Notes: a model not told the origin generated them from the letters alone. A stretch of DNA of 64,000 bases from an uncultured Alphaproteobacteria bacterium (GCA_963822575.1 CAWGHZ010000007.1:1375655-1439654); one strand, 5' to 3'; positions 6,886-51,255 are shown, counted from the stretch's first letter. Numbers and translations: made by a program.

Positions 6886-7272
6886 TCAGTCCTTGGCGGC
6901 GATGGCCTCGACCTCGATCTGGTACTCGGGCCGGGCGAGGCGGCTCACGAACAGCAGCGTCGAGGCCGGCACGTTGCCGCCGAACGCCTGCTTCTGGATC
7001 GACCGCCAGCTATCCATCTGAGCGGGGTCGAGGAGGAAGGTCGTCACCTTGACTACGTTCGACCAGTCCATACCGCATTCCTTCAGCACCTGGGTGATGT
7101 TTGCATAGACCTGCCGCGCCTGGGTGGCGAAGTCTGACGAGACCGTGCCGTCCATGGCGCCACCGGTCTGGCCCGCCAGGTGGAAGATGCGGGCGTTGGG
7201 GCCGATCTCGCCGACGTGCGAGAAGCGTCCCTGCGGGTCGTTGACGCCCTTGACGTTGTAGCGCTTGACCAT
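6886..7272 (-). CDS. ridA: RidA/YjgF family reactive intermediate deaminase
   Basis: 128 aa, YjgF-like sequence; strong AGGAGG RBS. Confidence 0.85.
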   Translation of the reverse strand: MVKRYNVKGVNDPQGRFSHVGEIGPNARIFHLAGQTGGAMDGTVSSDFATQARQVYANITQVLKECGMDWSNVVKVTTFLLDPAQMDSWRSIQKQAFGGNVPASTLLFVSRLARPEYQIEVEAIAAKD

Positions 7273-7287
7273 CGTTTCCTCCTTCCG

Positions 7288-8505: not shown

Positions 8506-8639
8506 CGGGATACTCCCGCGTTTCGATAGCAATTCGATATATCTATCGGCGACGCGCCGTCAAGCGCCGCCGTTCGCCGTTGCCACTTGCCGGCGCCGGG
8601 GGATACGATCCCGCCAATCGCCGTATAGGGAGACGAAAC

Positions 8640-10199: not shown

Positions 10200-10328
10200 G
10201 CTCGACCTGCCTGGCATGTTCCGCTATTCCGTTCGCCCAGGGTAGCGCCCCAAGTGCGCGCATTGAAAAGCGAACGAATACGTTGTGAGGCCCTCGGGAG
10301 CTAGCGCACGGGGACCTCGGAGGTTTCG

Positions 10329-11777
10329 TTGTCCGACTGGAAGCCGGTCTTCTACGTGCTCGGCTGGATGCTGATCGCGCTGGCGGTGGCGATGGCGGTG
10401 CCGACGCTCGCCGACGCGGCGGTCGACAACACGGACTGGCGCAATTTCGCTGCCTCGGGCGCGATGACGCTCGCGATCGGCGGGTTGCTGGTCACCGCCA
10501 ACCGCGCGACAAACATGCGGGTGGGGGTACGCCAGGCCTTCGTGCTCACCACGCTCGCCTGGATGGCGGTGTCGGCCTTCGCCGCGCTGCCGTTCGTGTT
10601 CTCCAACATCAAGCTCGACTACGCCGACGCGTTCTTCGAAGCGATCTCCGGCCTGACCACCACCGGCTCCACCATCCTGATCGGGCTGTCGACCCAACCG
10701 CCCGGCATCCTGCTGTGGCGTTCGATCCTGCAGTGGCTGGGCGGCATCGGCATCATCGCTATGGCGGTGATCATGCTGCCGTTCCTCAATGTCGGCGGGA
10801 TGCAGCTTTTCCGCATGGAATCCTCGGACCGGTCGGAGAAGATCCTGCCGCGCCCGCGCCAGATCGCCGCCTGGCTGTTCTTCGCCTACGTCGGCATATC
10901 CGTGCTGTGCGTCGGGACCTACTGGGCGCTCGGCATGACCTTCTTCGAGGCGATGTGCCACGCCATGACGACCATCTCGACCGGCGGCTATTCCACCTCC
11001 GACGCCTCGTTCGGGTACTTCCAGAACCCGCCGCTCGAATGGGCGGCGGTGGTGTTCATGCTCGCGGGCGGGCTGCCCTTCGTGCTCTATGTCGGGGCGC
11101 TTCGCGGCCGGTTCCGCGATCTCGTCACTAACGCCCAGGTGAAGGGGCTCGTCGGATTCCTGGCGGTGGTCTCGCTCGCCATCGCCTGCTGGCTCGCCAT
11201 CGTGCACCATGCCCCATTCTTGGAAGCGCTGCGCCTCGCCACGTTCAACGTCGTCTCGGTGGTCACCACGACCGGCTATGCCAGCACCGATTACAATAGC
11301 TGGGGCGGCTTCCCCGTGCTGACGCTGCTGCTGCTCAGCTTCGTCGGCGGCTGCGCTGGCTCGACCGCGGGCGGCATCAAGTTCTATCGGCTGCAGGTGC
11401 TGTGGGACATGATGACGAAGCGCGTGCGCCAGCTCATTTTCAGCCATGCCGTCACCACGCCGACCTACGACGGAAGGCCGCTCTCGGTCGAGGTGCGGCT
11501 TTCCATCGGCGTGTTCTTCTTCGTCTACGTCATGACGGTGGTTATCATCGCGGTAGCGCTCGCCGCGCTCGGGCTCGACCCGATCACGGCGTTGAGCGGC
11601 GCGGCCGCCACGGTGGGCAATGTCGGCCCCGGGCTCGGGCCGATCATCGGGCCGGCCGGCACCTACGCCAGCCTGCCCGATGCCGCCAAGTGGCTGATGT
11701 CGGCCGGCATGCTGCTCGGCCGGCTCGAGATGTTCACCGTCCTGGTGCTGATGTCGCCGACGTTTTGGCGCGCCTAA
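10329..11777 (+). CDS. trkH: TrkH/KtrB family potassium uptake protein
   Basis: 482 aa polytopic membrane protein with repeated TTGS/TGG selectivity motifs. Confidence 0.85.
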   Translation: MSDWKPVFYVLGWMLIALAVAMAVPTLADAAVDNTDWRNFAASGAMTLAIGGLLVTANRATNMRVGVRQAFVLTTLAWMAVSAFAALPFVFSNIKLDYADAFFEAISGLTTTGSTILIGLSTQPPGILLWRSILQWLGGIGIIAMAVIMLPFLNVGGMQLFRMESSDRSEKILPRPRQIAAWLFFAYVGISVLCVGTYWALGMTFFEAMCHAMTTISTGGYSTSDASFGYFQNPPLEWAAVVFMLAGGLPFVLYVGALRGRFRDLVTNAQVKGLVGFLAVVSLAIACWLAIVHHAPFLEALRLATFNVVSVVTTTGYASTDYNSWGGFPVLTLLLLSFVGGCAGSTAGGIKFYRLQVLWDMMTKRVRQLIFSHAVTTPTYDGRPLSVEVRLSIGVFFFVYVMTVVIIAVALAALGLDPITALSGAAATVGNVGPGLGPIIGPAGTYASLPDAAKWLMSAGMLLGRLEMFTVLVLMSPTFWRA

Positions 11778-14513: not shown

Positions 14514-15251
14514 ATGTTTTCGCTGGAGGGAAAGCGCGCCCTGGTCACCGGGGCGAGCGGCGGGATCGGCGCCGCCATCGCCCGCGCGCTGCACGTGCAG
14601 GGCGCTGCCGTGGTACTGAGCGGGCGCAACCGCGCTGCGCTCAATTCGCTGGCGGCCGAGCTGGGCGGGCGGGCGCACGTCGCCGTCGCCGATCTGGCGA
14701 CCGCCGCGGGGTGCGACACGCTCGCCGATGCCGCGCAGAGGGCCGCAGGCGGGCTCGACATCCTGGTCAACAATGCCGGGCTCACCCGCGACGGGCTCGC
14801 CATGCGCATGTCCGACGAGGACTTCGCGTCCGTGCTCGACGTGAACCTCGCCGCCGCCTTCCGTCTCGCGCGCGCCGCGATGCGCGGGATGATTCGCCAG
14901 CGCTGGGGCCGCATCGTCAACATCACATCGGTCGTCGGCCAGACCGGCAATGCCGGCCAGGCCAACTACGCCGCCTCCAAGGCCGGGCTCGTCGGCATGT
15001 CGAAGTCCCTCGCGGCCGAGCTCGCCGGGCGCAACATCACGGTGAATTGCGTCGCCCCCGGTTTCATCGAGACGGCGATGACCGCTTCGCTCGACGAGGC
15101 GCAGCGCGCCCGCCTCCTGGCGCAGATCCCCGCCGGCCGGTTCGGCGCGCCCGAGGACGTCGCCGCCTGCGTCGCGTTCCTGGCCAGCGAGGACGCCAGC
15201 TACGTGACCGGCGCCACCTTGCACGTCAATGGCGGAATGGCCATGATATGA
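14514..15251 (+). CDS. fabG: 3-oxoacyl-ACP reductase FabG
   Basis: SDR with TGASGGIG, NNAG and YAASK motifs; upstream of acpP. Confidence 0.9.
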   Translation: MFSLEGKRALVTGASGGIGAAIARALHVQGAAVVLSGRNRAALNSLAAELGGRAHVAVADLATAAGCDTLADAAQRAAGGLDILVNNAGLTRDGLAMRMSDEDFASVLDVNLAAAFRLARAAMRGMIRQRWGRIVNITSVVGQTGNAGQANYAASKAGLVGMSKSLAAELAGRNITVNCVAPGFIETAMTASLDEAQRARLLAQIPAGRFGAPEDVAACVAFLASEDASYVTGATLHVNGGMAMI

Positions 15252-15408
15252 GCGCGAATCGGGCCGATTTCCGGGGGATTTTCCGGGCGCGCCGAGTGGT
15301 GGCGACTGTTTTCGAAGTGTGCTAGGTAGGTTCGCTTTCTCGCCGCGGTTACGTGCCGAAACAAGGGCGCGAGCGGACAGAACTCGTGGGATTCAAGGGA
15401 TTTAGGGC

Positions 15409-15645
15409 ATGAGCGATACGGCTGAGCGCGTGAAGAAGATCGTCGTGGAGCACCTCGGCGTGGACGAATCGAAGGTCAGCGAGAACGCGAGCTTCATCGA
15501 CGATCTGGGGGCCGACAGCCTGGATACCGTCGAGCTGGTCATGGCGTTCGAAGAGGAGTTCGGCTGCGAGATTCCGGATGACGCCGCGGAGAAGATCCTG
15601 ACGGTGAAGGACGCCATCAACTTCATCGAGGCGCATGCGGCTTGA
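15409..15645 (+). CDS. acpP: Acyl carrier protein
   Basis: 78 aa, [20 protein letters not shown]. Confidence 0.95.
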
Positions 15646-15693
15646 GGCCGCGCTTCGGCGCACGATCCGCCCCGGCAAGTTGAGCGAACGCCC

Positions 15694-16959
15694 ATGAGAC
15701 GTGTCGTCGTCACCGGCCTCGGAATGGTCACGCCGCTGGGGTCGGGTGTGAAGGCCACGTGGGAGCGGCTGATCGACGGCCAGTCCGGCGTGCGCGCGAT
15801 CCAGTCGTTCGACGTCACCGATTTGCCGTCCAAGATCGCCGGCCAGGTGCCCAAGGGCGACCAGTCGGCCGGGCTGTTCAACTCCGACGACTGGGTGCCG
15901 CCGGCCGAGCGGCGCAAGATGGGCGAGTTCGTGCTCTACGCCGTCGCCGCCGCGACCGAGGCGCTCGCCGATTCGGGCTGGACGCCGGCGAGCGAGGAGG
16001 ACCGCGAACGGACCGGCGTGATGATCGGCTCGGGCATCGGCGGGCTCCCCGAAATCTATGACGGCTCGATCATCCTGCACGAGCGCGGACCGCGCCGCAT
16101 CACACCCTTCTTCATCCCGGCGAGCCTGATCAATCTCGCCTCGGGCCATGTCTCGATCAAGTTCGGCCTCAAGGGGCCGAACCATTCGGTGGTCACCGCC
16201 TGCTCGACCGGCGCGCACGCGATCGGCGACGCGACGCGGCTGATCCAGCTCGACGATGCCGATGTGATGGTCGCGGGCGGCACCGAGGCCGCGATCTGCC
16301 GGCTGGGCGTCGCGGGCTTCGCCGCCGCCCGGGCGCTCTCGACCGGCTTCAATGACGAGCCGGAGCGCGCCTCGCGCCCGTGGGACAAGGACCGCGACGG
16401 GTTCGTCATGGGCGAGGGCTCGGGCATCGTGGTGCTCGAGGAGTTGGAGCACGCGAAGAAGCGCGGCGCCAAGATCTATGCCGAGGTGATCGGCTACGGG
16501 CTCTCGGGCGACGCGTTCCACATCACCGCCCCCGCGCCCGACGGCAATGGCGGGTTCCGCTCGATGAAGGCCGCGCTCAAGCGCGCCGGGCTCAACCCCG
16601 ACGACATCGACTACATCAACGCGCACGGCACCTCGACGCCCAAGGGCGACGAGATCGAGCTGGGCGCGGTGAAGCGGCTGTTCGGCGACGCGGCGCACAA
16701 GCTCTCGATGTCGTCGACCAAGTCGGCCATCGGCCATCTCCTGGGCGCGGCGGGCAGCGTGGAGGCGATCTTCTCGATCAAGGCGATCGAGAACGGCGTC
16801 GTGCCGCCGACGCTCAACCTCGAGAACCCGTCCGAGGGATGTCAGGACGTGGACCTCGTGCCGCTCGCCGCCAAGGAGCGCAAGGTGCGGAACGCGCTCT
16901 CCAACTCGTTCGGGTTCGGCGGCACCAACGCCACGCTGATCTTCACCGCGGCACCGTAG
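15694..16959 (+). CDS. fabF: 3-oxoacyl-ACP synthase II
   Basis: 421 aa KAS II; active-site region VVTACSTGAHAIG; follows acpP. Confidence 0.9.
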   Translation: MRRVVVTGLGMVTPLGSGVKATWERLIDGQSGVRAIQSFDVTDLPSKIAGQVPKGDQSAGLFNSDDWVPPAERRKMGEFVLYAVAAATEALADSGWTPASEEDRERTGVMIGSGIGGLPEIYDGSIILHERGPRRITPFFIPASLINLASGHVSIKFGLKGPNHSVVTACSTGAHAIGDATRLIQLDDADVMVAGGTEAAICRLGVAGFAAARALSTGFNDEPERASRPWDKDRDGFVMGEGSGIVVLEELEHAKKRGAKIYAEVIGYGLSGDAFHITAPAPDGNGGFRSMKAALKRAGLNPDDIDYINAHGTSTPKGDEIELGAVKRLFGDAAHKLSMSSTKSAIGHLLGAAGSVEAIFSIKAIENGVVPPTLNLENPSEGCQDVDLVPLAAKERKVRNALSNSFGFGGTNATLIFTAAP

Positions 16960-16972
16960 CCGCCGCGCCGCC

Positions 16973-17953
16973 GTGCGCGCCTCCCGCCTCGCCGCCTGGA
17001 CCGTTGCCCTGGTCCTGCTCGCCGCGCTCGGCGCAGGCGCGTGGGGCTGGTACGACTACACGCGCCCGGGCCCGCTCGCCCAAAGCCGCACCGTCATCGT
17101 GCCCAAGGGCGTGGGGCTCGACACGATCTCGCGCCTCCTCGCCGAGAAGGGGATCGTCCGCCACGCGACGGTGTTCGTTCTCGGCGCGCGCGCGACCGGC
17201 ACCGCCCGCAAGCTGCGCGCCGGCGAGTTCGCCTTCGCGCCGCACGCCAGCATGGATGCGGCAGCGCGCCACCTCGCCTTCGGCCAGCCGGTCATGCGCA
17301 AGTTCACCATCCCCGAGGGCGAGACCACGCCCGAGGCGCTCGCCCGGCTCGCCGCCGCCGCCGGGCTCGAGGGCACGGCGCCCCAGGATGTGGCCGAAGG
17401 CGCGCTGATGCCCGAGACCTACCTCTACACCTGGGGCGACGAGCGCCCGGCGCTGGTCGCGCGCATGCGCCGCGCCATGCGCCGGACGCTCGACAAGCTG
17501 TGGTCCGACCGCGCCTCCAGCCTTGCCATCGCGTCCGAGCATGACGCGCTGGTGCTCGCCTCGATCATCGAGAAGGAGACGGCGGTCCCGGCGGAGAGAC
17601 CGATGATCTCCGCCGTGTTCCAGAACCGGCTGCGCAAGGGGATGAAGCTGCAATCCGACCCGACGGTGATGTTCGCTCTCACCCACGGTGCGGGGCGGCT
17701 CGACCGGAAGCTGAGCCACGCCGACCTCGAAACCAATTCGCCCTACAACACCTATCGCGTGACGGGCCTGCCGCCCGGACCGATCGGCAATCCCGGCCGC
17801 GCCTCGATCGAGGCGGCGCTGCATCCGGCGGAAAGCGACGCGCTCTACTTCGTCGCCGACGGCACGGGCGGGCACGTCTTCGCCAAGACCCTCGCCGAGC
17901 ACAACCGCAACGTCGCCCGCTGGCGCAAGATCGAGGAGCAGAAGAAGCCGTAA
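16973..17953 (+). CDS. mltG: Endolytic murein transglycosylase MltG (YceG-like)
   Basis: GTG start; YceG-like C-terminal region (QSDPTVMFAL, YNTYRVTGLPPGPIGNPG). Confidence 0.85.
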   Translation: MRASRLAAWTVALVLLAALGAGAWGWYDYTRPGPLAQSRTVIVPKGVGLDTISRLLAEKGIVRHATVFVLGARATGTARKLRAGEFAFAPHASMDAAARHLAFGQPVMRKFTIPEGETTPEALARLAAAAGLEGTAPQDVAEGALMPETYLYTWGDERPALVARMRRAMRRTLDKLWSDRASSLAIASEHDALVLASIIEKETAVPAERPMISAVFQNRLRKGMKLQSDPTVMFALTHGAGRLDRKLSHADLETNSPYNTYRVTGLPPGPIGNPGRASIEAALHPAESDALYFVADGTGGHVFAKTLAEHNRNVARWRKIEEQKKP

Positions 17954-17956
17954 CCG

Positions 17957-18733
17957 CTATTCCCGTCGCGCCATCCGGCGGAGGGCCGGGTCGGTCATGC
18001 GCTCGGGCAGCGTTGCGCCAAGCCAAGCGAGAAAATAGGTCGGGAACGGGAAGGCGATGCGGCCGCGGTCACGCGCGAGGCCGCTTCGGACGATCCGCAC
18101 GGCGCGCTCGGCCGAAATCTTGAACGGCTGCGGGAAATGGCCGCCCTCGGTCATCGGCGTTGCGACGAACCCGGGACAGATCACCGACACCAGGATGCCC
18201 TCGGCATGGTGGCGGGCGCGGAGCGATTCGCCCCACACGCGTATCGCCGCCTTCGAGGCGGCATAGGCGGGCGCCCCGGGATAGCCGCGGAAGCCCGCGA
18301 GCGAGCTCATGATCGCGATCTGGCCGCGCACGCCGTCTTGCGCCGGGCGCGCCTGCATGAGCTCGATCGCCGGCAGCACGGTGTTCACCACCCCGTCGAT
18401 GTTGACGGCCAAGATATGCCCGGTCTCGTCCTCCGATTCGCCGCCGTCGGGCGGCCCGTCCGAGATGCCCGCATTGGCGACCACCAGGTCGAGCGGCGCG
18501 GTCCGGTCGGCCTCGGCGATCCAGGCCCGCATGTCGCCGCGGTCGGTGACGTCGCAGATACGCCCGGTCGCCGCCGCGCCCTTCGCCCGGCACAACTCGG
18601 CCACCGCCTCGGTCCGCGCCGGGTCGCGGCCCGAGAGCGCCAGCGCGACGCCGGGCGCGGCGTAGGCCAGCGCCAGCGCCGCGCCGAGGCCCGACGAGCC
18701 GCCCGTGATCAGGATCGAGCGCGGCGCACGCAT
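17957..18733 (-). CDS. SDR family oxidoreductase
   Basis: ILITGGSSGLGAALA Rossmann motif; CAGGAGAG RBS before ATG at 18733. Confidence 0.8.
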   Translation of the reverse strand: MRAPRSILITGGSSGLGAALALAYAAPGVALALSGRDPARTEAVAELCRAKGAAATGRICDVTDRGDMRAWIAEADRTAPLDLVVANAGISDGPPDGGESEDETGHILAVNIDGVVNTVLPAIELMQARPAQDGVRGQIAIMSSLAGFRGYPGAPAYAASKAAIRVWGESLRARHHAEGILVSVICPGFVATPMTEGGHFPQPFKISAERAVRIVRSGLARDRGRIAFPFPTYFLAWLGATLPERMTDPALRRMARRE

Positions 18734-18822: not shown

Positions 18823-19711
18823 TTGACCGTCGCCAGCATGACCGGATTCGCCCGCGCCGAGGGATTCCAGGACGGCTATGCCTGGTCGTGGGAGATCCGC
18901 AGCGTCAACGGCCGCAACCTCGACGTCCGCGCCAAGCTTCCGCCCGGCAACGAGGCGCTGGAGATGAAGGCGCGCACGCTCTGCGCCGAGCGCTTCCGCC
19001 GCGGCTCGATCTCGCTCACCTTGAACCTCACGCTGCACCGAACGGGCCGCTTCCGTACGGGTCAACCGCGATGCGCTCGACCGCATGGTGGCGCTGGCCC
19101 GCGAGGTCGGCGCCGGGATCGGCGCGCCGCCGCCCCGCATCGAAGGCCTCCTGGGGCTTTACGGCGTGGTCGAGCGCATCGAGGAGGAGGAGACCGAGGA
19201 CGTCCGCGCGGCGCGCGAGGCGGCCATGGAACGGACGCTCGCCGACGCGCTCGATGCGCTCGCCCGCATGCGCGCGGACGAGGGCGCGCGGCTCCACGAC
19301 ACGGTGGCGGGCCACCTCGCCCGTATCGCCGCCCTGGCCCAGGACGCCGCCAAATCCGCCGCCGCCCAGCCCGAGGCGCTGAAGCGCCGGCTTGCCGAGC
19401 AGGTCGCGGCGCTCCTGGACGCGCGCGTCGGCGTTTCGGAGGAGCGCCTGGCGCAGGAGGCGGCGCTCCTCGCCACCAAGGCCGACGTACGCGAGGAAAT
19501 CGACCGGCTCAACGCGCACGTCACCGCGGCGCGCGAGCTGCTCGCCGCCGGCGAGGCGGTCGGGCGGCGGCTCGACTTCCTGTGCCAGGAGTTCAACCGC
19601 GAAGCCAACACGCTGTGCTCGAAAGCGACCGATATTGACCTCACCCGCATCGGGCTCGACCTCAAGGCGTCGATCGAGCAGCTCCGCGAGCAGGTCCAGA
19701 ACATCGAGTAG
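18823..19711 (+). pseudogene. yicC: YicC-family stress-induced protein; frame broken by two apparent single-base deletions at C/G homopolymers near 19040-19065
   Basis: YicC N-domain in frame 1 and DUF1732 C-domain in frame 2; the third frame reads HPNGPLPYG across the junction, implying CCC->CC and GGGG->GGG. Confidence 0.75.
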
Positions 19712-31687: not shown

Positions 31688-32185
31688 ATGCCGTTCTACG
31701 AGAGCGTGTTCATCGCGCGCCAGGACATCTCCGCCGCCCAGGTGGAGGCGCTGTCCCAGCGGGTCACCGAAATCATCGCCGGTCAGGGCGGGCAGGTCAC
31801 CAAGAACGAATATTGGGGCCTGAAGAACCTTTCCTACCGCATCAAGAAGAACCGCAAGGGCCACTACACCTTGCTGAACATCGACGCGCCTGCTCCCGCC
31901 ATTGCCGAGATGGAGCGCAATTTGCGCCTCGACGAGGATGTGCTGCGCTTCATGACGGTGCGCGTCGAAGAGCTGGAGGAAGGCCCGTCGGCGATGATGC
32001 GGAGCCGCGAAGACCGCGGGCGCCGATTCGGCGACCGGGACCGCGGCGATCGGGATCGCGGCGACCGGGATCGCGGCGACCGTGGCGGGCGCGAGCGCGA
32101 CCGCGACCGGGGCGACCGGCCTTATCGCGACCGCCCGCCGCGCGAACGCGCCGAGGCCAGCGCCGACGAGGGAGAGTCCGAATGA
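31688..32185 (+). CDS. rpsF: 30S ribosomal protein S6 with Asp/Arg-rich repetitive C-terminal extension
   Basis: [13 protein letters not shown]...; C-terminal DRDRGDR repeats encoded by a 15-nt tandem DNA repeat. Confidence 0.95.
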
Positions 32186-40399: not shown

Positions 40400-42518
40400 T
40401 CAGTGCGGCAGCAGCCCGGCGAGGATGGCGAGCAGCAGCAGCGCCACGATGTTGATGATCTTGATCATCGGGTTGACCGCCGGTCCCGCCGTGTCCTTGT
40501 ACGGGTCGCCGACCGTGTCGCCGGTCACCGCCGCCTTGTGCGCGTCGGAGCCCTTGCCGCCGTAATGGTCGTCCTCGATATACTTCTTGGCGTTGTCCCA
40601 GGCGCCGCCGCCCGAGGTCATCGAGATCGCGACGAACAGGCCGGTGACAATGGTGCCGAGCAGCAGTGCGCCGAGGGTGGTGAACGCCGCCACCTCGCCG
40701 GCGATCCACCAGATCACCAGCCAGACGACGATCGGCGCCAGCACCGGTAGCAGCGACGGCAGGATCATCTCGCGGATCGCCGCCCTGGTCAGCAGATCGA
40801 CGGCGCGGCCGTACTCGGGCTTGGCCGTGCCCGCCATGATGCCGGGGATCTCCTTGAACTGGCGGCGCACCTCGACGACCACGCTGCCCGCCGCGCGGCC
40901 GACCGCCTGCATGCCGAGCGAGCCGAACAGATAGGGCAGCAGACCGCCGAGCAGCAGACCGACGACGACGTAGGGGTCCTGCAGGCGGAACTCGATCTGG
41001 CCGGCGAGGTTCGGGAAGTAGTGCTTGAGGTCCTGGGTGTAGGCGGCGAACAGCACCAGCGCGGCGAGGCCCGCCGAGCCGATGGCATAACCCTTGGTCA
41101 CCGCCTTGGTGGTGTTGCCTACGGCGTCGAGCGCGTCGGTCGAGGTGCGCACTTCGGCCGGCAGGTCGGCCATCTCGGCGATGCCGCCCGCGTTGTCCGT
41201 GACCGGCCCGTAGGCGTCGAGCGCGATCACCACCCCGGCGAGCGCCAGCATGGTGGTCGCGGCGAGCGCGATGCCGAACAGCCCGGCCGCGTAATAGGCG
41301 AGCAGGATGCCGGCGCAGATCACAACCACCGGCAGGGCCGTCGCTTCCATCGACACGGCGAGCCCCTGGATCACGTTCGTGCCGTGGCCGGTCTGCGAGG
41401 CGCGGGCGACCGACAGCACCGGCTTGTGGTCGGTGCCCGTGTAGTACTCTGTAATCCACACCAGGAGGCCGGTGACGCCCAACCCGACCAGGACGCATTC
41501 CATCAGGGAGAAGCCGGTGAGCTGGACGGCGCCCATCGCGATCGGCGCCGAAAAGCCCCCGAACAGGACCCAGGTGGCGATACCGACCAGCACGAACGAG
41601 ATCGCCGCCGAGGCGATGAAGCCCTTGTAGAGCGCGCCCATGATGTTGTTGGACGGGCCCAGCCGGACGAAGAACACGCCGATCACCGAGGCGATGATGC
41701 ACACCCCGCCGATCACCAGCGGGTAGACCATCATCGTCTCCAGCGGCGCACCGGTGAAGAAGATGCCGGCGAGCAGCATGGTCGCCACCATGGTGACCGC
41801 ATAGGTCTCGAACAGGTCGGCCGCCATGCCGGCGCAGTCGCCCACGTTGTCGCCCACGTTGTCGGCGATCACGGCGGCGTTGCGGGGGTCGTCCTCGGGG
41901 ATACCCGCCTCGATCTTGCCGACCAGGTCGGCGCCGACGTCGGCGCCCTTGGTGAAGATGCCGCCGCCGAGCCGCGCGAAGATCGAGATCAGCGAGCCGC
42001 CGAACCCGAGCGCGACCAGCGCCTCGAGGATGTGGCGGAGCCCCGCGGGGTCGGCCGCGTTGAAGATGCCGCGCAGCACGAAATAATAGCCGGCGACACC
42101 CAACAGCCCGAGCCCGACCACCAGCATGCCGGTGATCGCACCCGACTTGAAGGCAATGTCGAGCGCCGGGCGAAGCCCGCCGGAGCGTGCCGCCTCGGCC
42201 GTCCGCACATTGGCCCGGACCGAGACGTTCATGCCGAGATAGCCCGCCGCGCCCGACAGGATGGCGCCGATGGCGAACCCGATCGCGCTGTAGACGCTCA
42301 GCAGGAATCCGAAGAATCAGGCAAACCACGATGCCGACGATGCCGATGGTGGTGTATTGCCGGTTGAGGTAGGCCTTCGCGCCCTCCTGGACCGCGGCCG
42401 CGATCTCCTGCATGCGCGCGGTGCCGGCGCTGGCGGCGAGGATCGCGCGGGACGCCCAGGCGCCGTAGCCGAGCGCCACGATCCCGCACGCGATCACAAA
42501 CCAGTAAGTCGATGTCAT
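40400..42518 (-). pseudogene. hppA: K+/H+-translocating membrane pyrophosphatase (HppA), frameshifted near 42311-42322
   Basis: N-terminal 70 aa ([21 protein letters not shown]...) in one frame, the remaining 610 aa (..[24 protein letters not shown]..) in the +1 frame. Confidence 0.8.
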
Positions 42519-42677: not shown

Positions 42678-43881
42678 CTATTTCAAGGCCAACTCCCGCC
42701 GAAACGAATCGATGGCGAACTTCGCTGCCCAGTTCAGGTACTGGAACCGCCCGTACCAGCCGGAAATGGGGAACGAGCCGCGTACGCCGCCAATGCGGTC
42801 GGGATGCTCCGACGTCGCGATGGTCCGCCGGACGAAGGCGTTGGCGCGCAGGGCGGCGTCGCGGTATCGCGGTTCGCCCGTCCAGTCGAAAAGCTGCAGC
42901 CAGCACCAAGCAATCTGCACCGAACCGGTCAAGCAGGCCCACGGTGCCGCAGGCCGCCAGTCGGCATAGAAGCGGCCGGCAAGGTAGCCGTCGTGCCGGA
43001 CGCGAGGGACCAAGGCGTCGGCCGTCTTCCGCGCCGCCCCCAGCAGCGCGTCGTCGGGCCGCAATCGGTATGCCTCGATCAATCCGCGCAGCACGTACCC
43101 GATCGTGTGCGTGAGTGGGCGCGACGAAGTCGAGAAGGCAGCAGTCCGCGAACCAGCCGTTGGGGCGCTGCTTCGTCAGGGCCCAGCGCACTTGCTTGAG
43201 GCCGGCCTCACCATAGCCGCGCCCCGGCGCGACCCGGTCCGCCTCGAACAGCCCCCAGGCGACATGCGTTTCGTAGGCCTTTTCGCTCGCCAACGCGAAG
43301 GGTGTCGGGAAGCGGCGCCAGCAGCCGTCGTCGTCCTGCGTGGCGACCAGCCACGCCGCCGCCCGGTTCATGGCGTCGTGGTAGGCCTGCTTTCCCAGCG
43401 TCGCGGCGCCGGCGGCGAGGCCGAGCAGTATCTGGCCCGTATTGAAGGTCACGGGCTGCACGGGGCGCTGGACCATCGTGCCCCCCTGAAAGCCGCCTTC
43501 CGGGAACTGGATCGACACCAGCCAGTCGAGCATGCGCTCGGCGCGCTGCCGCAGCGAGGCATCGCTGCAAATGTCGGCCTCGCTCAGCAATGTCGGGACG
43601 ATGTATCCGGTCGTCTCCGGATAGGACGCGGCCCAGCCGTCGATCAGGCTGAAATGGCGTGCGACCCCGCCATCCCCCGTCGCCGACCGGTCCTGCGCCC
43701 GGCCGAGCCATGCCAGGCAGGCCGCGATCGCCGCCTCGCAGCCTGGATCGGACGAGGGCGGGCCGCGACGGTCCGCGCGGTCTTGCGCCCGCGCCGCGTC
43801 CGTTACGTCGTTGAGCTGCAGGTAGTAGCGTTCGGCGAGCGTCTCGGGCAGGAGGCGCTTGATGCCCGCTCTAATGTCCAC
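42678..43881 (-). pseudogene. Prenyltransferase / terpene-cyclase-like alpha-alpha toroid protein with QW (QxxDGxW) repeats, frameshifted near 43095-43115
   Basis: QW motifs TQDDDGCW, SIQFPEGGF, KQRPNGWF; two frames join at ..CCLLDFV / PLTHTIGYVLRGL.. Confidence 0.6.
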
Positions 43882-45072
43882 GTCTCCTCGCCCCGGAAAG
43901 AGCGCCCGCGCGGGACCTATAGGGCCGCGCAAACAATTTCGACAGCCTCGATCCGAGACGGTCCAAAGCCGTGTAGCACCAGGGCATGGGATCGTCCAGC
44001 CGCCACACGGCGTCCCGCGGCCGCACGCCGTCCGGGAAACCGCGTTGCGTCCCGGGCTGCATCTCGGCCGACCACCGGTCGATCGGCGAAACGGTCCAGC
44101 CCACCGGCCGGGCCGGGGGGCATGGCGGCGGAACCGGCTGGCCCACGGCGCTGCAATAGGCGGCATTCGGAATGTTCACGCCGTTCAGCGTGGCCACCTC
44201 CTCCTGGAAATCGGACCGCCCCACGGTGGGCTCGATCATGACGAACCGGCCCGTACGGGCGTCACGCTTGTATTCCATGCTTCCCATCCCGACGAATCCG
44301 ACCGCGGTGAAAAACGCGTCGGTCAGGCGCTCGAGCTCGGCCGCATGCTCCGGGGCCGGCATGCAGCTCGCCGTGCCGCCGGTCTGGGGCGGCCAGGAGC
44401 GCAACTTGCGACCAGTGAATCGCGCCACAGCGCGGTCGGGCGCATCGCGGTACTGCAGGCAGAAAAAGATCGCATCGTCACCGCCTTCGATCCATTCCTG
44501 GACGATCAGTTCGGCGGCCCCATCGATCTCGGTGACCAATTCGCGCAGCCGGACGAGGCTCTCGATCTTGTAAGCCTTCTTGAACAGCCTCTGATAGCGC
44601 TCTGTCTTCACAACAGGTTTGAGCACGCAGGGAAAGGCGAGCCCCTCGGACGCGGCAAGATCGGCCGGTCCGACGATGTGCACGGCCCGCGGCACGGGAA
44701 AGCCGAGCCGCTCGGCCGCGTCCTGGAACCGTGCCTTGTCCATCAGGACGCGCATGATCGCGTCGTCCGACATGGCGATGCGATAGTGCGCGGCGACGCG
44801 CGCGTAGTCGGATGACACCGTCTCGACGCTCGCTTCCTGGGTCAAGATCAGGACCGGGTCGGCTTCGAAGCGTGCGCGCAGCGCGATCAGCGCATCGACG
44901 AAGCCTGGCCCGGAAAGCAACGGGATTTCGAGGTAGCGCGCATGCCGGCTGCGCAGCGCGATATCGGCCGGGTTGCGTTCGGCCAGCCAGACCGGTATCC
45001 TTGCCTTGCCAGGCTGCGGACGATACCCAGCCCGTTGATGTCGCCGCCTATGATGAGCGCAAGAGCATCCAT
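43871..45072 (-). pseudogene. ATP-grasp domain carboxylate-amine ligase, frameshifted near 44995-45005
   Basis: N-terminal MDALALIIGGDINGLGIVRSLARQG continues in the other frame as IPVWLAERNP...; ATP-grasp core downstream. Confidence 0.7.
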
Positions 45073-45207
45073 CGAGAATCCGCGCCCGCAGCTACCCGGA
45101 CGCGCTGCCGGAGGTTGCCTGTCGGGCACCTCCCGACCCGGCGATTACCGTCGCCGACGCCAGCGCGCGGCCGAGTGCCGCACAGATATCGGCGACCTCT
45201 TCTTCCG

Positions 45208-46332
45208 TCATCCGTGAATGGCTCGGAAGTTCGAGAGACGTGGCGCAACGGCGGTCGCAAAGGGAAAGGTTCCGCCGTGGCTGAAGTCCAGTGCATAGCC
45301 CCGGCGCGTCGCGACCCCCAACCGTAGTAGCGCCGCCCGTAAATCCTCGCGATCCGTACCGTCCGGCAGCACCACCATGATGCGGGTCAAGTACCGCCCG
45401 GGCTTAAATTGTGGGAAGCGCACGCCCGGTATTCCGGCAAGATGGCGATGAAACAGGCCACCGACGCGAACACGCCCTTCGATCCGCGCGGTACAAGTCT
45501 CGAGCTGGGTCAACGCGATCGCCGCGCTGATATTGGGCATGCGCGTCGGAGGAAAGTAAGGGGGCGCCCATTTCTTGCCGAAGGCACGCTGCAATATTTC
45601 CCGCCAGTAATAAGTCGCCAAAGAAAAAATGGACTCGAATTGATAGTCCTTGAGATATGCCAACAAGTTGTTCAGTTTGTAGCTTGGGTCAGGGAGTTCC
45701 TCCCATTGCACTTGTGCCGCGCCCGCAAGGTCGGGGTTATTCCAAACCACGAGACCACCGGCCTCATAGCAACCTGTCACGAGAGTCTTAGACGTCGCGA
45801 AGCTGATGATCCCTGCGTCCCCGAAACCCCCGAAAGCTCTTCGGCGACTCGCGCGCACCCCGATCAAATTGGCCGCATCGTCGATGAGGAAGATGCCCTT
45901 ATTGCGACACAGGGCTTCGATCTTTTCGATTTCGCAAGGACATCCATATGCGTGAACCGCTATGACGGCGTGCGTTCGTTCCGAGATTGCCCGCTCCAGA
46001 CAGTCCACCGAGACGTTAAGGTCAGGTTCGATATCGACCGGTACCGGCGAAAGTCCCGCCTTCACTATGGCCTCGATCACGCTATCGCAAATGTATGCCG
46101 GATAAATGACCTCGCTTTTCCCGGGACGGTTTTGGGAAGACGCCTTCAACGCAAACCAGATGGCGGATCGCGCCCGATTGACCGGAAATATCGTTGCGTT
46201 TGGATAGCTGTCGCGAAAATGCGCGACGATTGAATCCACTGACCGGCCGACATTCGCGCGACCCAGAACGACGGCCCCTAAAGCGGCCACATAGTCCCGC
46301 CGCCCCCATTCTCCATAAATCATCGGGTGCAT
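45208..46332 (-). CDS. DegT/DnrJ/EryC1/StrS family PLP-dependent sugar aminotransferase
   Basis: 374 aa; SFATSKTL lysine motif; lower-GC region. Confidence 0.8.
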   Translation of the reverse strand: MHPMIYGEWGRRDYVAALGAVVLGRANVGRSVDSIVAHFRDSYPNATIFPVNRARSAIWFALKASSQNRPGKSEVIYPAYICDSVIEAIVKAGLSPVPVDIEPDLNVSVDCLERAISERTHAVIAVHAYGCPCEIEKIEALCRNKGIFLIDDAANLIGVRASRRRAFGGFGDAGIISFATSKTLVTGCYEAGGLVVWNNPDLAGAAQVQWEELPDPSYKLNNLLAYLKDYQFESIFSLATYYWREILQRAFGKKWAPPYFPPTRMPNISAAIALTQLETCTARIEGRVRVGGLFHRHLAGIPGVRFPQFKPGRYLTRIMVVLPDGTDREDLRAALLRLGVATRRGYALDFSHGGTFPFATAVAPRLSNFRAIHG

Positions 46333-46362
46333 AAGGGACCTTCTCGAAGACCTAGCTTTTAT

Positions 46363-47036
46363 CTAGGCGAACGCCGGAAAATACGAACCACCCGGCATTC
46401 CACTCGAACTTGTTGATCCCCAGCTTGCCCAAGAACCTCTTGGGATCGTCCGAGCCCACCGCAGATCTCGGAAATATTCGCGGAACGTCATTCCGCGGAA
46501 CAGAGGCTTTGCGGTCCGCACGATCAAATCGATTGCGATAAGACCACCGTACCTTTCGCGCACTTCTTTCTCGTTCTGAAAAAATCGCACATGCGTGGAA
46601 TAATCGAAATTCGGCACGGTGCAGATACAGAACGTTCCCGGCTTCCATAGCTTGACCGCAGAAATGTCCTGTTCGATATGTTCAAGAACCTCCGTGCAGA
46701 CGATACAGTCATAATCATACGAGCTGTAAGCTTCCGGCTCTAGAGCGTTTCCGACAAACACGACGCCGCTCTTGCCAAGACGCTGCGCCGCATTTTTTAC
46801 CGCAATCTGGCTAAAATCGAACCCACGATACTCGATGGCACATTTTTGGACGATCATCTCCGCGAGTCGGCCGCTTCCGCATCCGACTTCGAGGACGTGC
46901 CACGTTGCGCGCGTTGCACCTTATCCACAATATCGCAATACATAGGATAGTATTCTGATTTCGTGACCGGAAGGTCCGGGCGTCCCCATTCGGCATGAAG
47001 TTCATCGTAGACAGTAAGATCCGCTTCTTTTCCCAT
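46363..47036 (-). pseudogene. Class I SAM-dependent methyltransferase, frameshifted near 46895-46905 (CGCGCG run)
   Basis: N-terminal 45 aa in one frame up to ..VDKVQRA; motif I LEVGCGSGRLAEMIVQK continues in the other frame. Confidence 0.65.
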
Positions 47037-47047
47037 GTCACATGGTC

Positions 47048-48525
47048 CTATAGGTATTGCGGCTGGCGCTGAATCAATCTTCGAAGCCCGATCAGCAACG
47101 TGCGCTCTGCCCCACCCGGTCGTCCGGACATTAGCCACATAGTCAACGTCACCGCCGAAAACACGACCACACCAGAGACTACCGAAGCTCCAAGGACCAT
47201 GCCCCATCCAAGAGCATCATGCGAATGGGGTAGCTGCGCTTGGCACTCGAGAACGACGACGACCATCACGAGAGATCCTATCAATGGCCGATATAGGACC
47301 CCAAGAAGCCTTCCTGGAGCGAGGTTAAGAATTCGGCAAACAAGTAGAAAGTCAATGAATGACGAAACCGCTGCACCGCCGGTAACCGCCCATGCCGCTC
47401 CAACAACTCCAAGGTGGCTCACACCTATAACAAGCAATGGCAACATCACGATGGCGCCACCACCAAAAACCCATGCGGGATATTGCGGCCGCGAACATGC
47501 CATGAACAAGGGATGACTGCACGAGGTTAAGCAGGCAAGCAGCGCATAAACGGAAAGGACATGCATGATAGGTATCGCGGCGACCCATTTTTCGCCAAGC
47601 GCCAAGTGAACCACGGAACTGGCAACAAGGCCCAAGCCGACGGCAACGGGCACGGCAAAAAGGCTCGCGAGGCCGAATACTCCGAGGAAAGCCTGACGTA
47701 GCTCCGGCAGGTCTCCAGAAATCTTCGCGAAAGCAGGATAGATGCCACGCCTCATGGGCGCCAAGAGAAGACCGGTCACCATATCCATGATTTCAAGTGC
47801 AATCGTGTATACACCGACCGACTGGGCTCCCGCGAGCCGGCCCAGCACGAAGACATCGCTCTTTCTATATAAAAAGACACCAGAATTGACTAGGATCAGC
47901 CATTTCGAAAAATGCATGATCTCGCGCCAATGCTGGAACTCAGCCGCGGGCGCATGGGCTGCATCGTGTAGCTGAGGACAAGCGCACCACGGAGAGGCCG
48001 CGATTCCGGCCACCAATGCCCAATAGCTCGCGAAATGATGGCCAGCGGGATGATCACGACGAAACCGCCCAGCTTCGTAACCACCATGTAAATGAAGTCG
48101 CGGCGGAAATTGAGCTGCTTGCGGAAATCTACGAGGCCGATGTTCTGGAACCCATCGATCAATGTCGTGCCCGCCAGGCAATACACGATCGCCTCGAGCC
48201 GCGCGTCGCCGAACAACTCGGCGAAACGAACGGCGCGGCGGGAAGGAGCGCCAGCGCCAGGACCGCGTTGCGGCAGATGGCGAGCGTCCACGCCGTATCG
48301 TAATGCTGGCGTGTCGCCTTCTGGTTCTGGATCAGGACCGTGTCGAGGCTGAACTCGGTCACCGCCTGAAGGGCCCCGGAAAAGGTAGTGGCGAGCGCGA
48401 CGAGGCCGAAATCGGCCGGGACGAGCAGTCGCGCCAGAATGATCGTGCTGAGCATCCCGATCCCCTGCGACGGCGAGCCGCGCGCCGACAGTCCAGGCGG
48501 TGCCCTTGGCCATCTCGCGGCCCAT
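47048..48525 (-). pseudogene. wzx: Wzx-like polysaccharide flippase (polysaccharide biosynthesis protein family), at least three frameshifts
   Basis: Flippase N-terminus ..AWTVGARLAVAG / GIGMLSTIILARLLVPADFGLVALA split at a GGGG run (48462); further shifts near 48240 and 48000; C-terminal 370 aa intact. Confidence 0.65.
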
Positions 48526-49954
48526 GCCCTGGGTCGCCGCGCGGCACTCGGCTCGGACGACGGTGCCGTCGGGTCGCGACGGGCGTGCGGACGACGTCAT
48601 ATCTATGCGCGCCGGCATAGCGCCTTCCCCGATAAGGCCGTTCGAGAAACGCCTCCGCACGGGCGAACTGCAAGTCGCGGGCCAACCCCTCGCGCGCGGC
48701 GACCGGAAGGCGTGGGATGACCCCCTGCGCCGCTTTCTCGCGCGCCCAATCCCGCAAGTGTCCGGCGATGACGTCGGGATCCGTCGACACGGCCCCGGCC
48801 CGGCGGGCGCGCACGAAGTCCGCAGGCACCCCCTTGTCATATCCCATCACCAGGATCGGTCGCAGGCTCGCCAGATATTCGAACAGCTTGCCGGGGCAGT
48901 TGCCGGTCTCCATCGGGTTGTCCCACTGCATGAGAAGCAGGACGTCGGCATCCCATTGGAGCTGCAGCGATTTGTCGTACGGCACCGCCGGGTGTACCTC
49001 CACCAGGTGCCGTACGCCCGCCCTTTCGGCAAGCGGCCAGACCGCTTCGGGAGCGGTCCCATAAAATTCGAGAACGAAACGTTCGCCCTCGGGATCGATC
49101 TGCCGCAACGCCTGGAACAAGGGCGTCGGGTCGCGGCGCCCGACATAGATCGCCCCGGTGTAGACGATCCGCACCTTCGCCGAGACGGATTTCGGCGGCG
49201 CGCTCGGGTCGAACGAAAAATCCTTGGGATCGTAGCCGTTATAGACCGTCGCGACAGGCTTGCCGTATTTGGCACGATAGAACTCGCACCACGGCTCGGT
49301 GACGGTAACGATGCCCGTGGCGTTACGCAGCGTGCGCCGCTCCACCCACTGTTCCAGCCTGTGGCGCCAGCGCGGCCAATCCAGGAAGCGGTAGGGATCG
49401 TCCGCCCAACGATCGCGGAGCTCCGCGAGCCATGGCACGCCGAGCCGGGCACTCGCGCGGTGCGCGACGAGGAAGGCGGTGAAGGACGGGCCGCTGGCAT
49501 AGATCGCATCCGGCCGCCATGCCCGCCCCAGGCGCAGCACGTCGCGCAACGCGTACGGGTACCACCCGACCCGTTGGTCCGGGATGTTCAGCAGATTCGT
49601 GTAGCAGTCGGACAGACGCCGCAGCAACGCCGGGCGCGACGTGCCGTTATCCGCTGCGCCCGTCTCGGCTTGGGGCGCGGCGGTTTCGGCGAGGGAGGCC
49701 GGCGGCTGCCCGGTCATCCGGGTCCACAGCCCGCTGCCCAGCCGGACGGGCGCGTTGACGTCGAACCAGTTGGAATACGAAAGCCGCTTCAGCTCGATTC
49801 CCAGCGGCATGGTCTCGGGCATGCCCCAGTCGCGGCCCGCCACAACGCCGACTTCGTGCCCCCGCTCGACCAGGTAACGGGTGAACTTGCCGACACGCAC
49901 TGCGCCGATCGCATTGACCGGAGGAAAGTACCACGAAACGATCAGAATTCGCAT
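48359..49954 (-). CDS. Glycosyltransferase family 4 (C-terminal boundary uncertain; the ORF runs on into wzx N-terminal region in another frame)
   Basis: Start MRILIVSWYFPP; GT4 N-terminal and C-terminal sugar-binding domains; true stop probably near 48550-48700. Confidence 0.7.
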   Translation of the reverse strand: MRILIVSWYFPPVNAIGAVRVGKFTRYLVERGHEVGVVAGRDWGMPETMPLGIELKRLSYSNWFDVNAPVRLGSGLWTRMTGQPPASLAETAAPQAETGAADNGTSRPALLRRLSDCYTNLLNIPDQRVGWYPYALRDVLRLGRAWRPDAIYASGPSFTAFLVAHRASARLGVPWLAELRDRWADDPYRFLDWPRWRHRLEQWVERRTLRNATGIVTVTEPWCEFYRAKYGKPVATVYNGYDPKDFSFDPSAPPKSVSAKVRIVYTGAIYVGRRDPTPLFQALRQIDPEGERFVLEFYGTAPEAVWPLAERAGVRHLVEVHPAVPYDKSLQLQWDADVLLLMQWDNPMETGNCPGKLFEYLASLRPILVMGYDKGVPADFVRARRAGAVSTDPDVIAGHLRDWAREKAAQGVIPRLPVAAREGLARDLQFARAEAFLERPYRGRRYAGAHRYDVVRTPVATRRHRRPSRVPRGDPGHGPRDGQGHRLDCRRAARRRRGSGCSARSFWRDCSSRPISASSRSPLPFPGPFRR

Positions 49955-50145: not shown

Positions 50146-51255
50146 TCAGCCTGCGAAATCTGCCAGGCGCACCGGCTGGCGGCGCGGGCCCCAGTCGCCG
50201 GGGCGCGGCTCGAACACGCCGGGAAGCCTGGCGCCGCAGCCGGTGCAGCATCCCTCCGCGTCCAGGTTCCACGCCCCCAGCGCGTACCAGTCGCGTTCGA
50301 TCAGGAGCGTGCCGCAGGCGGGGCACCACGTGCTGCCGCCGGCGGCGTCGTGCACGTTGCCGGTATAGACAAAGCGGAGCCCACGGGCCCGGGCGATCTC
50401 GCGCGCGCGGCCAAGGGTCGCAGCCGGGGTGGCATGCTTGCCGGTCATCTTCCAATCGGGATGGAAGGCGGTGAAGTGCACCGGCACGTCCGGGCCCAAA
50501 TGATCGCCAATCCACGCACATTCGGCGTCGATCTCGCCCGGCGAGTCGTTCTCGCCGGGGATCAGGAGCGTGGTGATCTCGAACCAGACCTTTGATTCGG
50601 CAAGATATTCTAGCGTCTCCAGAACTGGCGTCAGCGATCCGCCGCAGATCTTCCGGTAGAAATCGTCGGTGAACGCCTTCAGGTCCACGTTCGCCGCGTC
50701 CATGTGGGCGTAGAACTCGGCCCGCGCGGCGGGAAGCTGGTAGCCGGCCGTCACCGCGACGGTCTTGATCCCCCGCGCGCGGCACGCCTCGGCCACGTCG
50801 ATCGCGTATTCATGGAAGATGACGGGATCGTTGTAGGTGAAGGCGACCGACCGGCAGCCGAGCGCCTGGGCGGCGCGGGCGATGGTGTCGGGCGCGGCCT
50901 CGTCGGCCAGCGTATCCATCTCGCGCGATTTCGAGATGTCCCAGTTCTGGCAGAACTTGCAGGCGAGGTTGCAGCCCGCCGTGCCGAACGACAGGACCGG
51001 CGTTCCCGGCAGGAAATGGTTGAGCGGCTTCTTCTCGATCGGGTCGACGCAAAAGCCCGACGAGCGGCCGTAGGTGTCGAGCACGATGGAATCGCCCGCG
51101 CGCGACCGCACGAAACAGAGCCCGCGCTGGCCGTCGGCCAGCCGGCAGCGGCGCGGGCAGATCTCACACTCGATCCGCTGGTCGGCGAGCTTGCGGAAAT
51201 GGCGGCCCGGCGCGGGCGCCGGCCGGGCCGTCGGTCGACTCAGTATGCGTGCCAT
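50146..51255 (-). CDS. AmmeMemoRadiSam system radical SAM enzyme
   Basis: CNLACKFC (CxxxCxxC) radical SAM motif plus N-terminal Cys cluster ECEICPRRC; divergent from the Memo/AMMECR1 pair. Confidence 0.8.
   Translation of the reverse strand: MARILSRPTARPAPAPGRHFRKLADQRIECEICPRRCRLADGQRGLCFVRSRAGDSIVLDTYGRSSGFCVDPIEKKPLNHFLPGTPVLSFGTAGCNLACKFCQNWDISKSREMDTLADEAAPDTIARAAQALGCRSVAFTYNDPVIFHEYAIDVAEACRARGIKTVAVTAGYQLPAARAEFYAHMDAANVDLKAFTDDFYRKICGGSLTPVLETLEYLAESKVWFEITTLLIPGENDSPGEIDAECAWIGDHLGPDVPVHFTAFHPDWKMTGKHATPAATLGRAREIARARGLRFVYTGNVHDAAGGSTWCPACGTLLIERDWYALGAWNLDAEGCCTGCGARLPGVFEPRPGDWGPRRQPVRLADFAG

Follow-up and report, generated by a model that had tools for sequence, protein, structure and literature searches.

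What kind of locus lies between hppA and amrS in an uncultured alphaproteobacterium, and why is each of its genes broken as assembled? The question arose in a 64-kb stretch of DNA (GCA_963822575.1, CAWGHZ010000007.1:1375655-1439654), hereafter the window, to which all coordinates refer unless a locus (L-number) of the collection used is named; P-numbers are proteins in the same collection. A preliminary description had placed there, at 42678 to 49954, an island of six polysaccharide-modification genes. With a probability of about 0.7, we propose that the hppA-amrS interval is the lineage's hypervariable, Wzx-dependent surface-polysaccharide locus, of the O-antigen or exopolysaccharide type, which occupies a fixed slot and is remodelled by recombination. 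From the sequences compared here, this appears to be the best explanation. The boundaries first given were exact, as 42678 is the last base of the stop codon of the gene for the QW-repeat (QW) protein and 49954 is the first base of the start codon of the GT4-family glycosyltransferase (GT4). All six families named at the outset were found in this segment on the minus strand with Pfam and NCBIfam models, the ATP-grasp ligase below threshold and the QW protein at the border of PF13243. The cassette and its flanking genes are as follows (aa, amino acids; SAM, S-adenosylmethionine).

40400-42518, minus strand: hppA (H+-pyrophosphatase), left flank; PF03030, 789 bits; extra base at ~42313.
42678-43881, minus strand: QW protein, a predicted six-hairpin (alpha/alpha)6 protein, ~400 aa; one frameshift at ~43121-43126.
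43871-45072, minus strand: ATP-grasp carboxylate-amine ligase, ~400 aa; one frameshift at ~44998; its stop overlaps the QW start.
45092-46332, minus strand: DegT/DnrJ/EryC1-family sugar aminotransferase (DegT), ~413 aa, PF01041; one frameshift at ~45235.
46352-47036, minus strand: class I SAM-dependent methyltransferase, ~228 aa; frameshifts at ~46900 and ~46453.
47048-48525 (start possibly 48600), minus strand: wzx (Polysacc_synt_3 flippase), ~490 aa; mosaic, with 5-6 frameshifting indels.
48641-49954, minus strand: GT4, ~440-450 aa; PF13439/PF13579.
50146-51255, minus strand: amrS (AmmeMemoRadiSam radical SAM enzyme), right flank; PF04055.

The assignment of the locus relies on its flanks. 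The amrS gene corresponds to a gene call of the source genome (P0143, 369 aa, 100% identity), and through its homologs we reached three genus-level relatives (L086, L087 and L088), all on Mb-scale metagenome contigs, in which amrS is 82-86% identical. Compared to L086 and L087, hppA is 89-90% identical at the nucleotide level, and the window copy has one inserted base relative to both. Overall, the flanks are colinear with those of the relatives at 76-90% nucleotide identity (blastn). Each relative holds a different cassette of glycosyltransferase and Wzx genes beside amrS, and in L086 and L087 the interval ends at hppA (hyp, hypothetical protein; MTase, methyltransferase; GT2, a second type of glycosyltransferase):

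L086, amrS 86% identical: GT4-Wzx-hyp-GT2-hyp-hppA.
L087, amrS 84% identical: Wzx-GT2-hppA.
L088, amrS 82% identical: more than 10 kb with MTase-Wzx-GT4-MTase-GT4-GT2-hyp-rmlD-rmlC-rmlA; hppA is not reached within the 10-kb flank.

The segment 42651-47772 is not present in the three relatives. Because different cassettes lie between colinear flanks, the interval is best described as a hypervariable locus in a conserved slot. A comparison made by way of hppA in 80 genomes, in search of an empty site, returned a best identity of only 79% and no other window gene within +/-10 kb.

The O-antigen cluster of E. coli and Salmonella also sits at a fixed chromosomal site, between galF and gnd. The interval resembles such clusters in its conserved flanks, in a gene set that varies between close relatives, in its content of glycosyltransferase, Wzx and sugar-modifying genes, in a GC content below that of the genome, in mosaicism with recombination breakpoints and in having no mobility genes. 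It differs from them in its flanks, which are hppA and amrS here, in a cassette with no Wzy, Wzz, initiating transferase or nucleotide-sugar synthesis genes and, as far as the window cassette is concerned, in the fact that every gene is frame-broken as assembled. As lptD, lptF and lptG are intact in the window, the organism makes lipopolysaccharide. What weighs against the proposed locus type is that a Wzy polymerase, a chain-length regulator, an initiating phosphoglycosyl transferase, a sugar-nucleotide dehydratase and an O-antigen ligase partner were not found in the cassette, in the open reading frames (ORFs) at 0.6-30 kb or, via the sister loci, in the flanks, a search that left out ~30-34 and 59.5-64 kb. 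The missing polymerase and initiating genes may lie elsewhere in the genome. With no Wzy, initiating transferase or dehydratase, the cassette can therefore be no more than an accessory portion of a pathway and would make no polymer alone. The locus would be of a textbook kind, namely a hypervariable surface-polysaccharide cassette; the lineage that carries it is an uncultured one of soil Alphaproteobacteria, with Stella, Azospirillum and Geminicoccaceae as relatives.

The cassette is not uniform in composition. GC content is 0.516-0.588 in the 500-nt windows of 45250-48249 and 0.65-0.70 on either side. Over the whole window, the mean of 1-kb windows is 0.685 (SD 0.036), and values below 0.62 occur only in six consecutive 1-kb windows, whose starts range from 45001 to 47501 and whose lowest value, 0.531, is ~4.3 SD under the mean. 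The sliding-window profile confirms the GC dip reported earlier at 45.3-48.2 kb. It is confined to DegT, the methyltransferase and the 3' two-thirds of wzx. GC at third codon positions (GC3) is 0.60 in the methyltransferase and 0.66 in DegT, compared to 0.87 in the QW gene, 0.81 in the ATP-grasp gene, 0.83 in GT4 and 0.87-0.94 in host genes. Two further features of the cassette follow from these profiles and from the comparison with L086:

45100-48030: low-GC block (3' part of wzx, methyltransferase and DegT), by GC and GC3.
47940-48030: mosaic junction inside wzx, where an apparently native high-GC3 5' part meets a low-GC3 3' part; 3-4 one-base deletions are clustered here.

The compositionally foreign block thus extends from ~48.03 to 45.1 kb and measures ~2.9 kb. 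Its junction with the rest is visible within a single gene. Blastn aligns the window with L086 (77% identity) from amrS across GT4 and into wzx as far as window position 47773; the alignment begins again at 42650, immediately beyond the QW stop. When the stitched Wzx is compared to that of L086, the identity per 50 residues is 86, 82, 80, 62, 62, 46, 50, 40, 42 and 40%, and the GC3 of consecutive wzx segments is 0.87 and 0.84, then 0.62, 0.53 and 0.56. The blastn break lies ~170 nt further 3' than the junction. Judging from these alignments, the portion native to the lineage, common to the nearest relative, appears to consist of GT4 and ~170 codons at the start of wzx (its 5' third), and a low-GC import of ~2.9 kb would supply what remains of wzx together with the methyltransferase and DegT. 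The overlapping ATP-grasp and QW genes have a host-like GC content, yet they are not in the three relatives. Low-GC patches (15001-18000, 0.51 and 0.55 compared to ~0.70) also occur in the much larger L088 cassette, the one with rmlA, rmlC and rmlD, and patchy composition is therefore a property of the slot.

The second part of the question concerns the broken genes. All-frame translation showed that single genes were split across frames, and stitching restored full-length proteins. After stitching, the QW protein matches homologs of 400-408 aa end to end, Wzx spans positions 1-293 of the 293 in the PF13440 profile and the methyltransferase matches Methyltransf_12/23/25/11. The N-terminus of the ATP-grasp ligase (MDALALIIGGDINGLGIVRSLARQG) and the C-terminus of DegT (LELPSHSRMTEEEVADICAALG) are each encoded in another frame. 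DegT passes PF01041 (141 bits, cut-off 19.8), and its scores against the specific NCBIfam equivalogs WecE, LegC, DesI and PseC are all far under cut-off. GT4 is orthologous to the 448-aa GT4 of L086, to which it aligns with two 6-nt in-frame gaps and one 1-bp gap near the 3' end; a 1-bp insertion at ~48639 removes the true stop, and the ORF continues to 48359. Relative to L086, the wzx indels are at 48469, 48217, 48029, 47997, 47984 and 47940. Each of the six genes carries at least one frameshift, for a total of 11-12 indels. Since no cassette gene is intact as assembled, the synthesis and export of a glycan, which the preliminary description had read from the gene content, cannot be read off the sequence.

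We searched for frame breaks over the whole window with a codon-position hidden Markov model (HMM) and a check of ORF boundaries. Only two were found in the ~56.7 kb outside the cassette, one in hppA (~42313) and one at ~19050 in a yicC-like gene (18838-19711, plus strand), which is split across two frames at ~19045-19055. A further HMM candidate, at 32.0-32.2 kb, was rejected as the ordinary rpsF/rpsR boundary. Twenty other window genes with Pfam matches show no sign of fragmentation, and most of them span their profile end to end. The 11-12 frameshifts in 7.3 kb compare with 0.26 expected at the background rate (Poisson P ~1e-16).

Such a concentration may mean that the cassette is genuinely decaying, with real frameshifts in all six genes after selection was lost, either through one inactivating hit or through the wzx recombination. 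Damage to six genes out of six, the extreme excess over the rest of the window and the density of damage, which peaks at the chimeric wzx junction, all fit this explanation, as do the truncated gene calls of the source genome (610 aa for hppA, 374 aa for DegT and 349 aa for ATP-grasp) and a cassette with no polymerase or initiating genes. The type of damage points elsewhere. There are zero in-frame stops in 7,098 repaired coding nucleotides. A random substitution in the repaired genes produces a stop with probability 0.0335, and 12 neutral indels would come with ~4 nonsense codons at a substitution:indel ratio of 10:1 (P(0) = 0.018) and with ~2 at 5:1 (P(0) = 0.13), both ratios being assumed from general bacterial mutation spectra. 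No cassette gene is shortened by deletion, all are full length relative to their homologs and there are no insertion sequence (IS) elements. At columns that are invariant in the homologs, there are 0 deviations in 60 for the repaired QW protein and 1 in 72 for the ATP-grasp ligase, which is within the homologs' own range and no excess of change. Moreover, three to four 1-bp deletions fall within 90 bp, right at the wzx mosaic junction, which is improbable for independent mutations. Genuine decay is therefore rather unlikely, although it is the most serious competitor.

The sibling assemblies offer a comparison. In hppA of L086, too, one base is inserted, at another site that corresponds to window position 41737, and hppA of L087 is intact (705 aa). 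These independent insertions in a conserved gene point to a background of consensus indels in the assemblies, which is a further argument against decay. In L086, a FAD_binding_3 monooxygenase (6818-8465) is split into 253 + 311 aa and corresponds to a single 550-aa gene in L088, which in turn is apparently without a called gene (8554-9288) for the AMMECR1 protein that L086 has; both are likely further frameshift artefacts. The siblings are recorded as metagenome contigs of Mb scale, named 'contig_N'. In long-read metagenome-assembled genomes (MAGs), consensus indels fragment gene calls, especially below ~40x coverage (PMC9262707). The 11-12 frameshifts are thus probably errors in the consensus of a long-read metagenome assembly, accumulated in a region that varies between strains. 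A local excess of indels would follow because a strain-variable locus would get fewer or mixed reads, a coverage and mixing effect that we assume. Several observations limit the case for such an artefact. The 40-fold local excess has no direct explanation in the sequence alone, and the sister cassette of L086 shows no comparable excess of broken genes. A homopolymer origin of the indels was rejected, as the inspected breaks are not in long homopolymers; the simple Nanopore-type signature is thus missing, which by itself speaks neither for nor against an artefact. Finally, a long-read origin is suggested by the naming and size of the contigs only. If the errors are indeed of this kind, the indel-only pattern illustrates how consensus errors of long-read MAGs may accumulate where strains vary and be mistaken for gene decay. 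Taken at face value, the ORF calls would make the cassette a pseudogene graveyard or a set of truncated proteins.

A different artefact would be an assembly chimera, in which reads of two co-occurring strains with different cassettes were joined inside wzx, and no real genome would then have this gene order. Two observations fit such a join: identity and GC3 fall, and one-base deletions cluster, within the same ~90 bp, and the locus is hypervariable among relatives from the same ENA assemblies, the sister contigs being in ERZ25039483 and ERZ25039495. However, synteny cleanly resumes at hppA, within a contig of 1.5 Mb, and long reads normally span a few kb. The C-terminal half of Wzx is collinear with that of L086 at 40-50% identity and the full-length protein matches Pfam, as a real recombinant would, and the same gene families co-occur with Wzx elsewhere. 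We consider a chimera improbable; it would in any case be compatible with the proposed type of locus.

We then asked what the cassette may do, and in particular what the QW protein is. It had been called prenyltransferase/terpene-cyclase-like, and it does contain two QW-type motifs (WLVSIQFPEGGF and WLVATQDDDGCW) and a borderline match to the squalene-hopene-cyclase C-domain (PF13243, 26.8 bits, cut-off 26.1). The likeness holds at the motif level only. The protein is below the NCBIfam cyclase cut-offs (27 bits vs 322.7 for TIGR01787, 19.3 vs 851 for TIGR03463), and the DxDD motif of class II cyclases was not found, the window protein having QDDDG and the family consensus QDxDG. The family has an invariant set of its own (SYPETTGY, FNTGQ, YETHV, PLTHT, CLTG and NWAAKF). 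In the numbering of the homolog P0003, H208, H260, E271, D187 and C318 are among its invariant residues. Among solved structures, no sequence relative was found beyond a cyclase-like stretch of ~100 residues (squalene-hopene cyclase profile, 2.9e-5).

To obtain a fold, an AlphaFold2 model of the homolog P0003 was built from an alignment of 38 sequences (pLDDT 93.5, pTM 0.92). The top Foldseek matches to this model are GH88 unsaturated glucuronyl hydrolase and cellobiose/glucose 2-epimerases (TM 0.66-0.70), and squalene-hopene cyclase follows at rank 35 (TM 0.56). The QW protein is accordingly modelled as a single six-hairpin (alpha/alpha)6 barrel, predicted to be closest to sugar epimerases and GH88. 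When compared to the AGE superfamily (N-acyl-glucosamine 2-epimerase, cellobiose 2-epimerase and YihS) and to GH88, the predicted fold is close, the sequence identity is only 9-15% and the family has the invariant residues of its own given above. No GH88 or AGE Pfam model scored above cut-off, the closest being GH88 with 22.1 bits (cut-off 26.6), in one fusion protein only. With squalene-hopene and other class II terpene cyclases, the protein shares the QW-type motifs, an alpha-hairpin barrel and the borderline PF13243 match. Unlike them, it has one barrel and not two domains, no DxDD and a glycan rather than an isoprenoid context, and structurally it is further from them than from the sugar enzymes. 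That it is a true prenyl or terpenoid enzyme, acting on a polyprenyl carrier or a hopanoid-type lipid and not on a sugar, might be argued from the PF13243 score, the squalene-hopene cyclase profile and the two motifs. This is very unlikely given the TIGR01787 score, the replacement of DxDD by QDxDG, the single barrel of ~400 aa and the partners and fusions of the family, which are N-acyltransferases, methyltransferases and glycosyltransferases.

These partners emerged from the size and the neighbourhoods of the family. The family is large and well conserved: one search returned at least 4,827 member proteins, and a separate one, at E <= 1e-30, at least 706 clusters (50% identity). In 86 loci (5 + 80 + 1), we counted the co-directional gene abutting QW:

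AAC(3)-type Antibiotic_NAT: 24 of 86 loci.
FemAB/Acetyltransf_6-type GNAT: 13 of 86 loci.
Wzx: 8 of 86 loci.
GT4-type glycosyltransferase (by tblastn only): 4 of 86 loci.
ATP-grasp of the window's type: 4 of 86 loci.

An N-acylating or amide-forming enzyme, from three unrelated superfamilies, therefore abuts QW in 41 of the 86 loci, and a Wzx gene lies within 10 kb in 17 of 85 (tblastn). The earlier functional grouping of the six window families is supported by two unrelated metagenome contigs, L120 and L130, where all of them recur in one co-directional cluster:

L120: GT4-QW-Wzx-GT2-ATPgrasp-DegT-MTase.
L130: QW-Wzx-ATPgrasp-DegT-GT2-MTase.

Rather than an unusual member of such loci, as first thought, QW belongs to a family that is recurrent there. 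It also occurs in natural fusions (NAT-QW, QW-NAT, MTase-QW, QW-GT4/GT1, QW-LicD-GT4 and ATP-grasp-QW), the proteins with a fused QW domain being P0385, P0391, P0393, P0427, P0499, P0387, P0432, P0522 and P0412; P0391, for example, is of the AAC(3)-QW kind. P0389 (836 aa, with an N-terminal ~420 aa of no assigned family) was rejected as an ATP-grasp fusion, with an E-value of 0.33 against the window ligase. The closest QW homologs (66-68%) are found in two-gene cassettes with an AAC(3)-like N-acetyltransferase (L081 9033-11215, L083 9036-11227 and L084 9058-11212). Their neighbourhoods are mutually unrelated and not of polysaccharide type, for instance beside argJ and a NUDIX gene. Since the closest homologs lie outside obvious polysaccharide loci, the family is not restricted to them.

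The partner of QW in the window is the ATP-grasp ligase. The stitched protein has no Pfam match at E <= 1 and no sequence match in the PDB, and its best NCBIfam scores (PRK12767, 1.4e-9; LysX, 9e-4) are far under cut-off. Its homologs are ~60% identical, cover 93-97% of the stitched protein and are named carboxylate-amine ligase, ATP-grasp carboligase or D-aspartate ligase in their sources. The best of them (62%, in L169) overlaps a QW gene by 4 bp, in a locus that also has a GT4, an epimerase, a UDP-glucose dehydrogenase, Wzy_C, methyltransferases and a sulfotransferase. The natural ATP-grasp-QW fusion, P0412, is 35% identical to the window ligase (E 2e-50). In L170, a 59%-identical homolog (10001-11295) sits in a Wzy/Wzx/GT4 locus with an ORF of 35 aa at the expected QW site and a DDE transposase 5 kb off; QW may have been lost there.

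A known system offers a parallel. In the C. jejuni HS:2 capsule, the C-terminal TupA-like ATP-grasp domain of Cj1438 amidates glucuronate, together with the transaminase Cj1437 and the phosphatase Cj1435 (PMC11800379). By analogy, the window ligase is a putative ATP-grasp enzyme in a polysaccharide locus, with a predicted sugar amide bond and beside a PLP-dependent aminotransferase. Unlike Cj1438, it is free-standing, of ~400 aa and of the D-aspartate ligase/carboxylate-amine ligase type, and it is coupled to a six-hairpin protein, a pairing that does not figure in the published account of the Cj1432-Cj1438 reactions (PMC11800379). A Pfam scan of the stitched window ligase returned no family, and hence no ATP-grasp model of any kind in Pfam. 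Because there is no Pfam match at all, the window enzyme would be an analogue of the Cj1438 C-terminal domain and not a member of its family. In the literature on ATP-grasp amide formation in capsular polysaccharides, we found the C. jejuni analogue and nothing on the QW family. Similarly, no description of the family was found in the literature on squalene-cyclase-like proteins with glycan partners, coverage of which was incomplete, so that this is absence of evidence only.

From these likenesses, a reaction sequence can be proposed. DegT would aminate a keto-sugar nucleotide that would be made elsewhere in the genome; genes for this precursor were found neither in the cassette nor in the annotated flanks. 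The ATP-grasp ligase would form an amide in one of two ways: a carboxylic or amino acid would be joined to that amine, or a uronic acid would be amidated. The N-acyl sugar so formed would be the substrate of QW, which is most plausibly an epimerase/isomerase or a hydrolase. The methyltransferase would decorate the sugar, GT4 would transfer it and Wzx would flip the lipid-linked unit. This chemistry is deduced from family membership, adjacency and fold, and no solved or characterised relative of the ATP-grasp or QW family is detectable by sequence; both points reduce the weight of this part of the interpretation.

The three unrelated and interchangeable types of amide-forming partner, together with the AGE/GH88-like fold, suggest that QW processes an N-acylated amino sugar. 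More tentatively, the QW family may be a previously unrecognised glycan-tailoring enzyme and an obligate partner of an interchangeable amide-forming enzyme (AAC(3)-type, FemAB-type GNAT or ATP-grasp), for example by epimerising, isomerising or hydrolysing the N-acylated amino sugar of that partner. If this is true, the ATP-grasp/QW pair of the window is one instance of a widespread two-enzyme module for the N-acyl or aminoacyl decoration of surface polysaccharides. The type of locus is known, and the QW/amide-ligase module, which is uncharacterised, is its modestly interesting part. As a lead, it offers a testable hypothesis for a missing step in bacterial glycan decoration.

The horizontal acquisition inferred earlier from the GC dip holds only in part. 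Replacement or acquisition is supported by the different cassettes of the relatives and by the break in homology and GC3 inside wzx; an island of mobile type is not, and only ~2.9 kb is compositionally foreign. We found no tRNA anywhere in the 64 kb and only short, chance-level repeats, none of them direct repeats at the flanks; the Pfam/NCBIfam scan of the six cassette genes, the two flanking genes and the other scanned window ORFs gave no integrase or transposase match. The ~2.9 kb of low GC and the absence of the segment 42651-47772 from three relatives could be taken as signs of a genomic island in the classical sense, acquired horizontally in one piece through a site-specific integrase or transposase. 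We dismiss this as highly improbable, given the lack of such hallmarks, the other cassettes rather than an empty site at the same position in the relatives, the border inside wzx and the heterogeneous composition within the segment.

Elsewhere in the window, three tandem paralogous genes for DctP-type solute-binding proteins of TRAP transporters (603-3983, plus strand) are followed by a sulfatase gene on the opposite strand (4044-5657). At the 3' end of rpsF (32030-32089, plus strand), ribosomal protein S6 has an Arg/Asp-rich repeat tail and a length of 165 aa, compared to 170 aa in the sister genome. Beside fabG- and fabF-like genes, an 875-aa AMP-binding/PP-binding/acyltransferase fusion (11774-14401, minus strand) resembles, by its predicted domain order, Aas-type acyl-ACP synthetase/acyltransferases.

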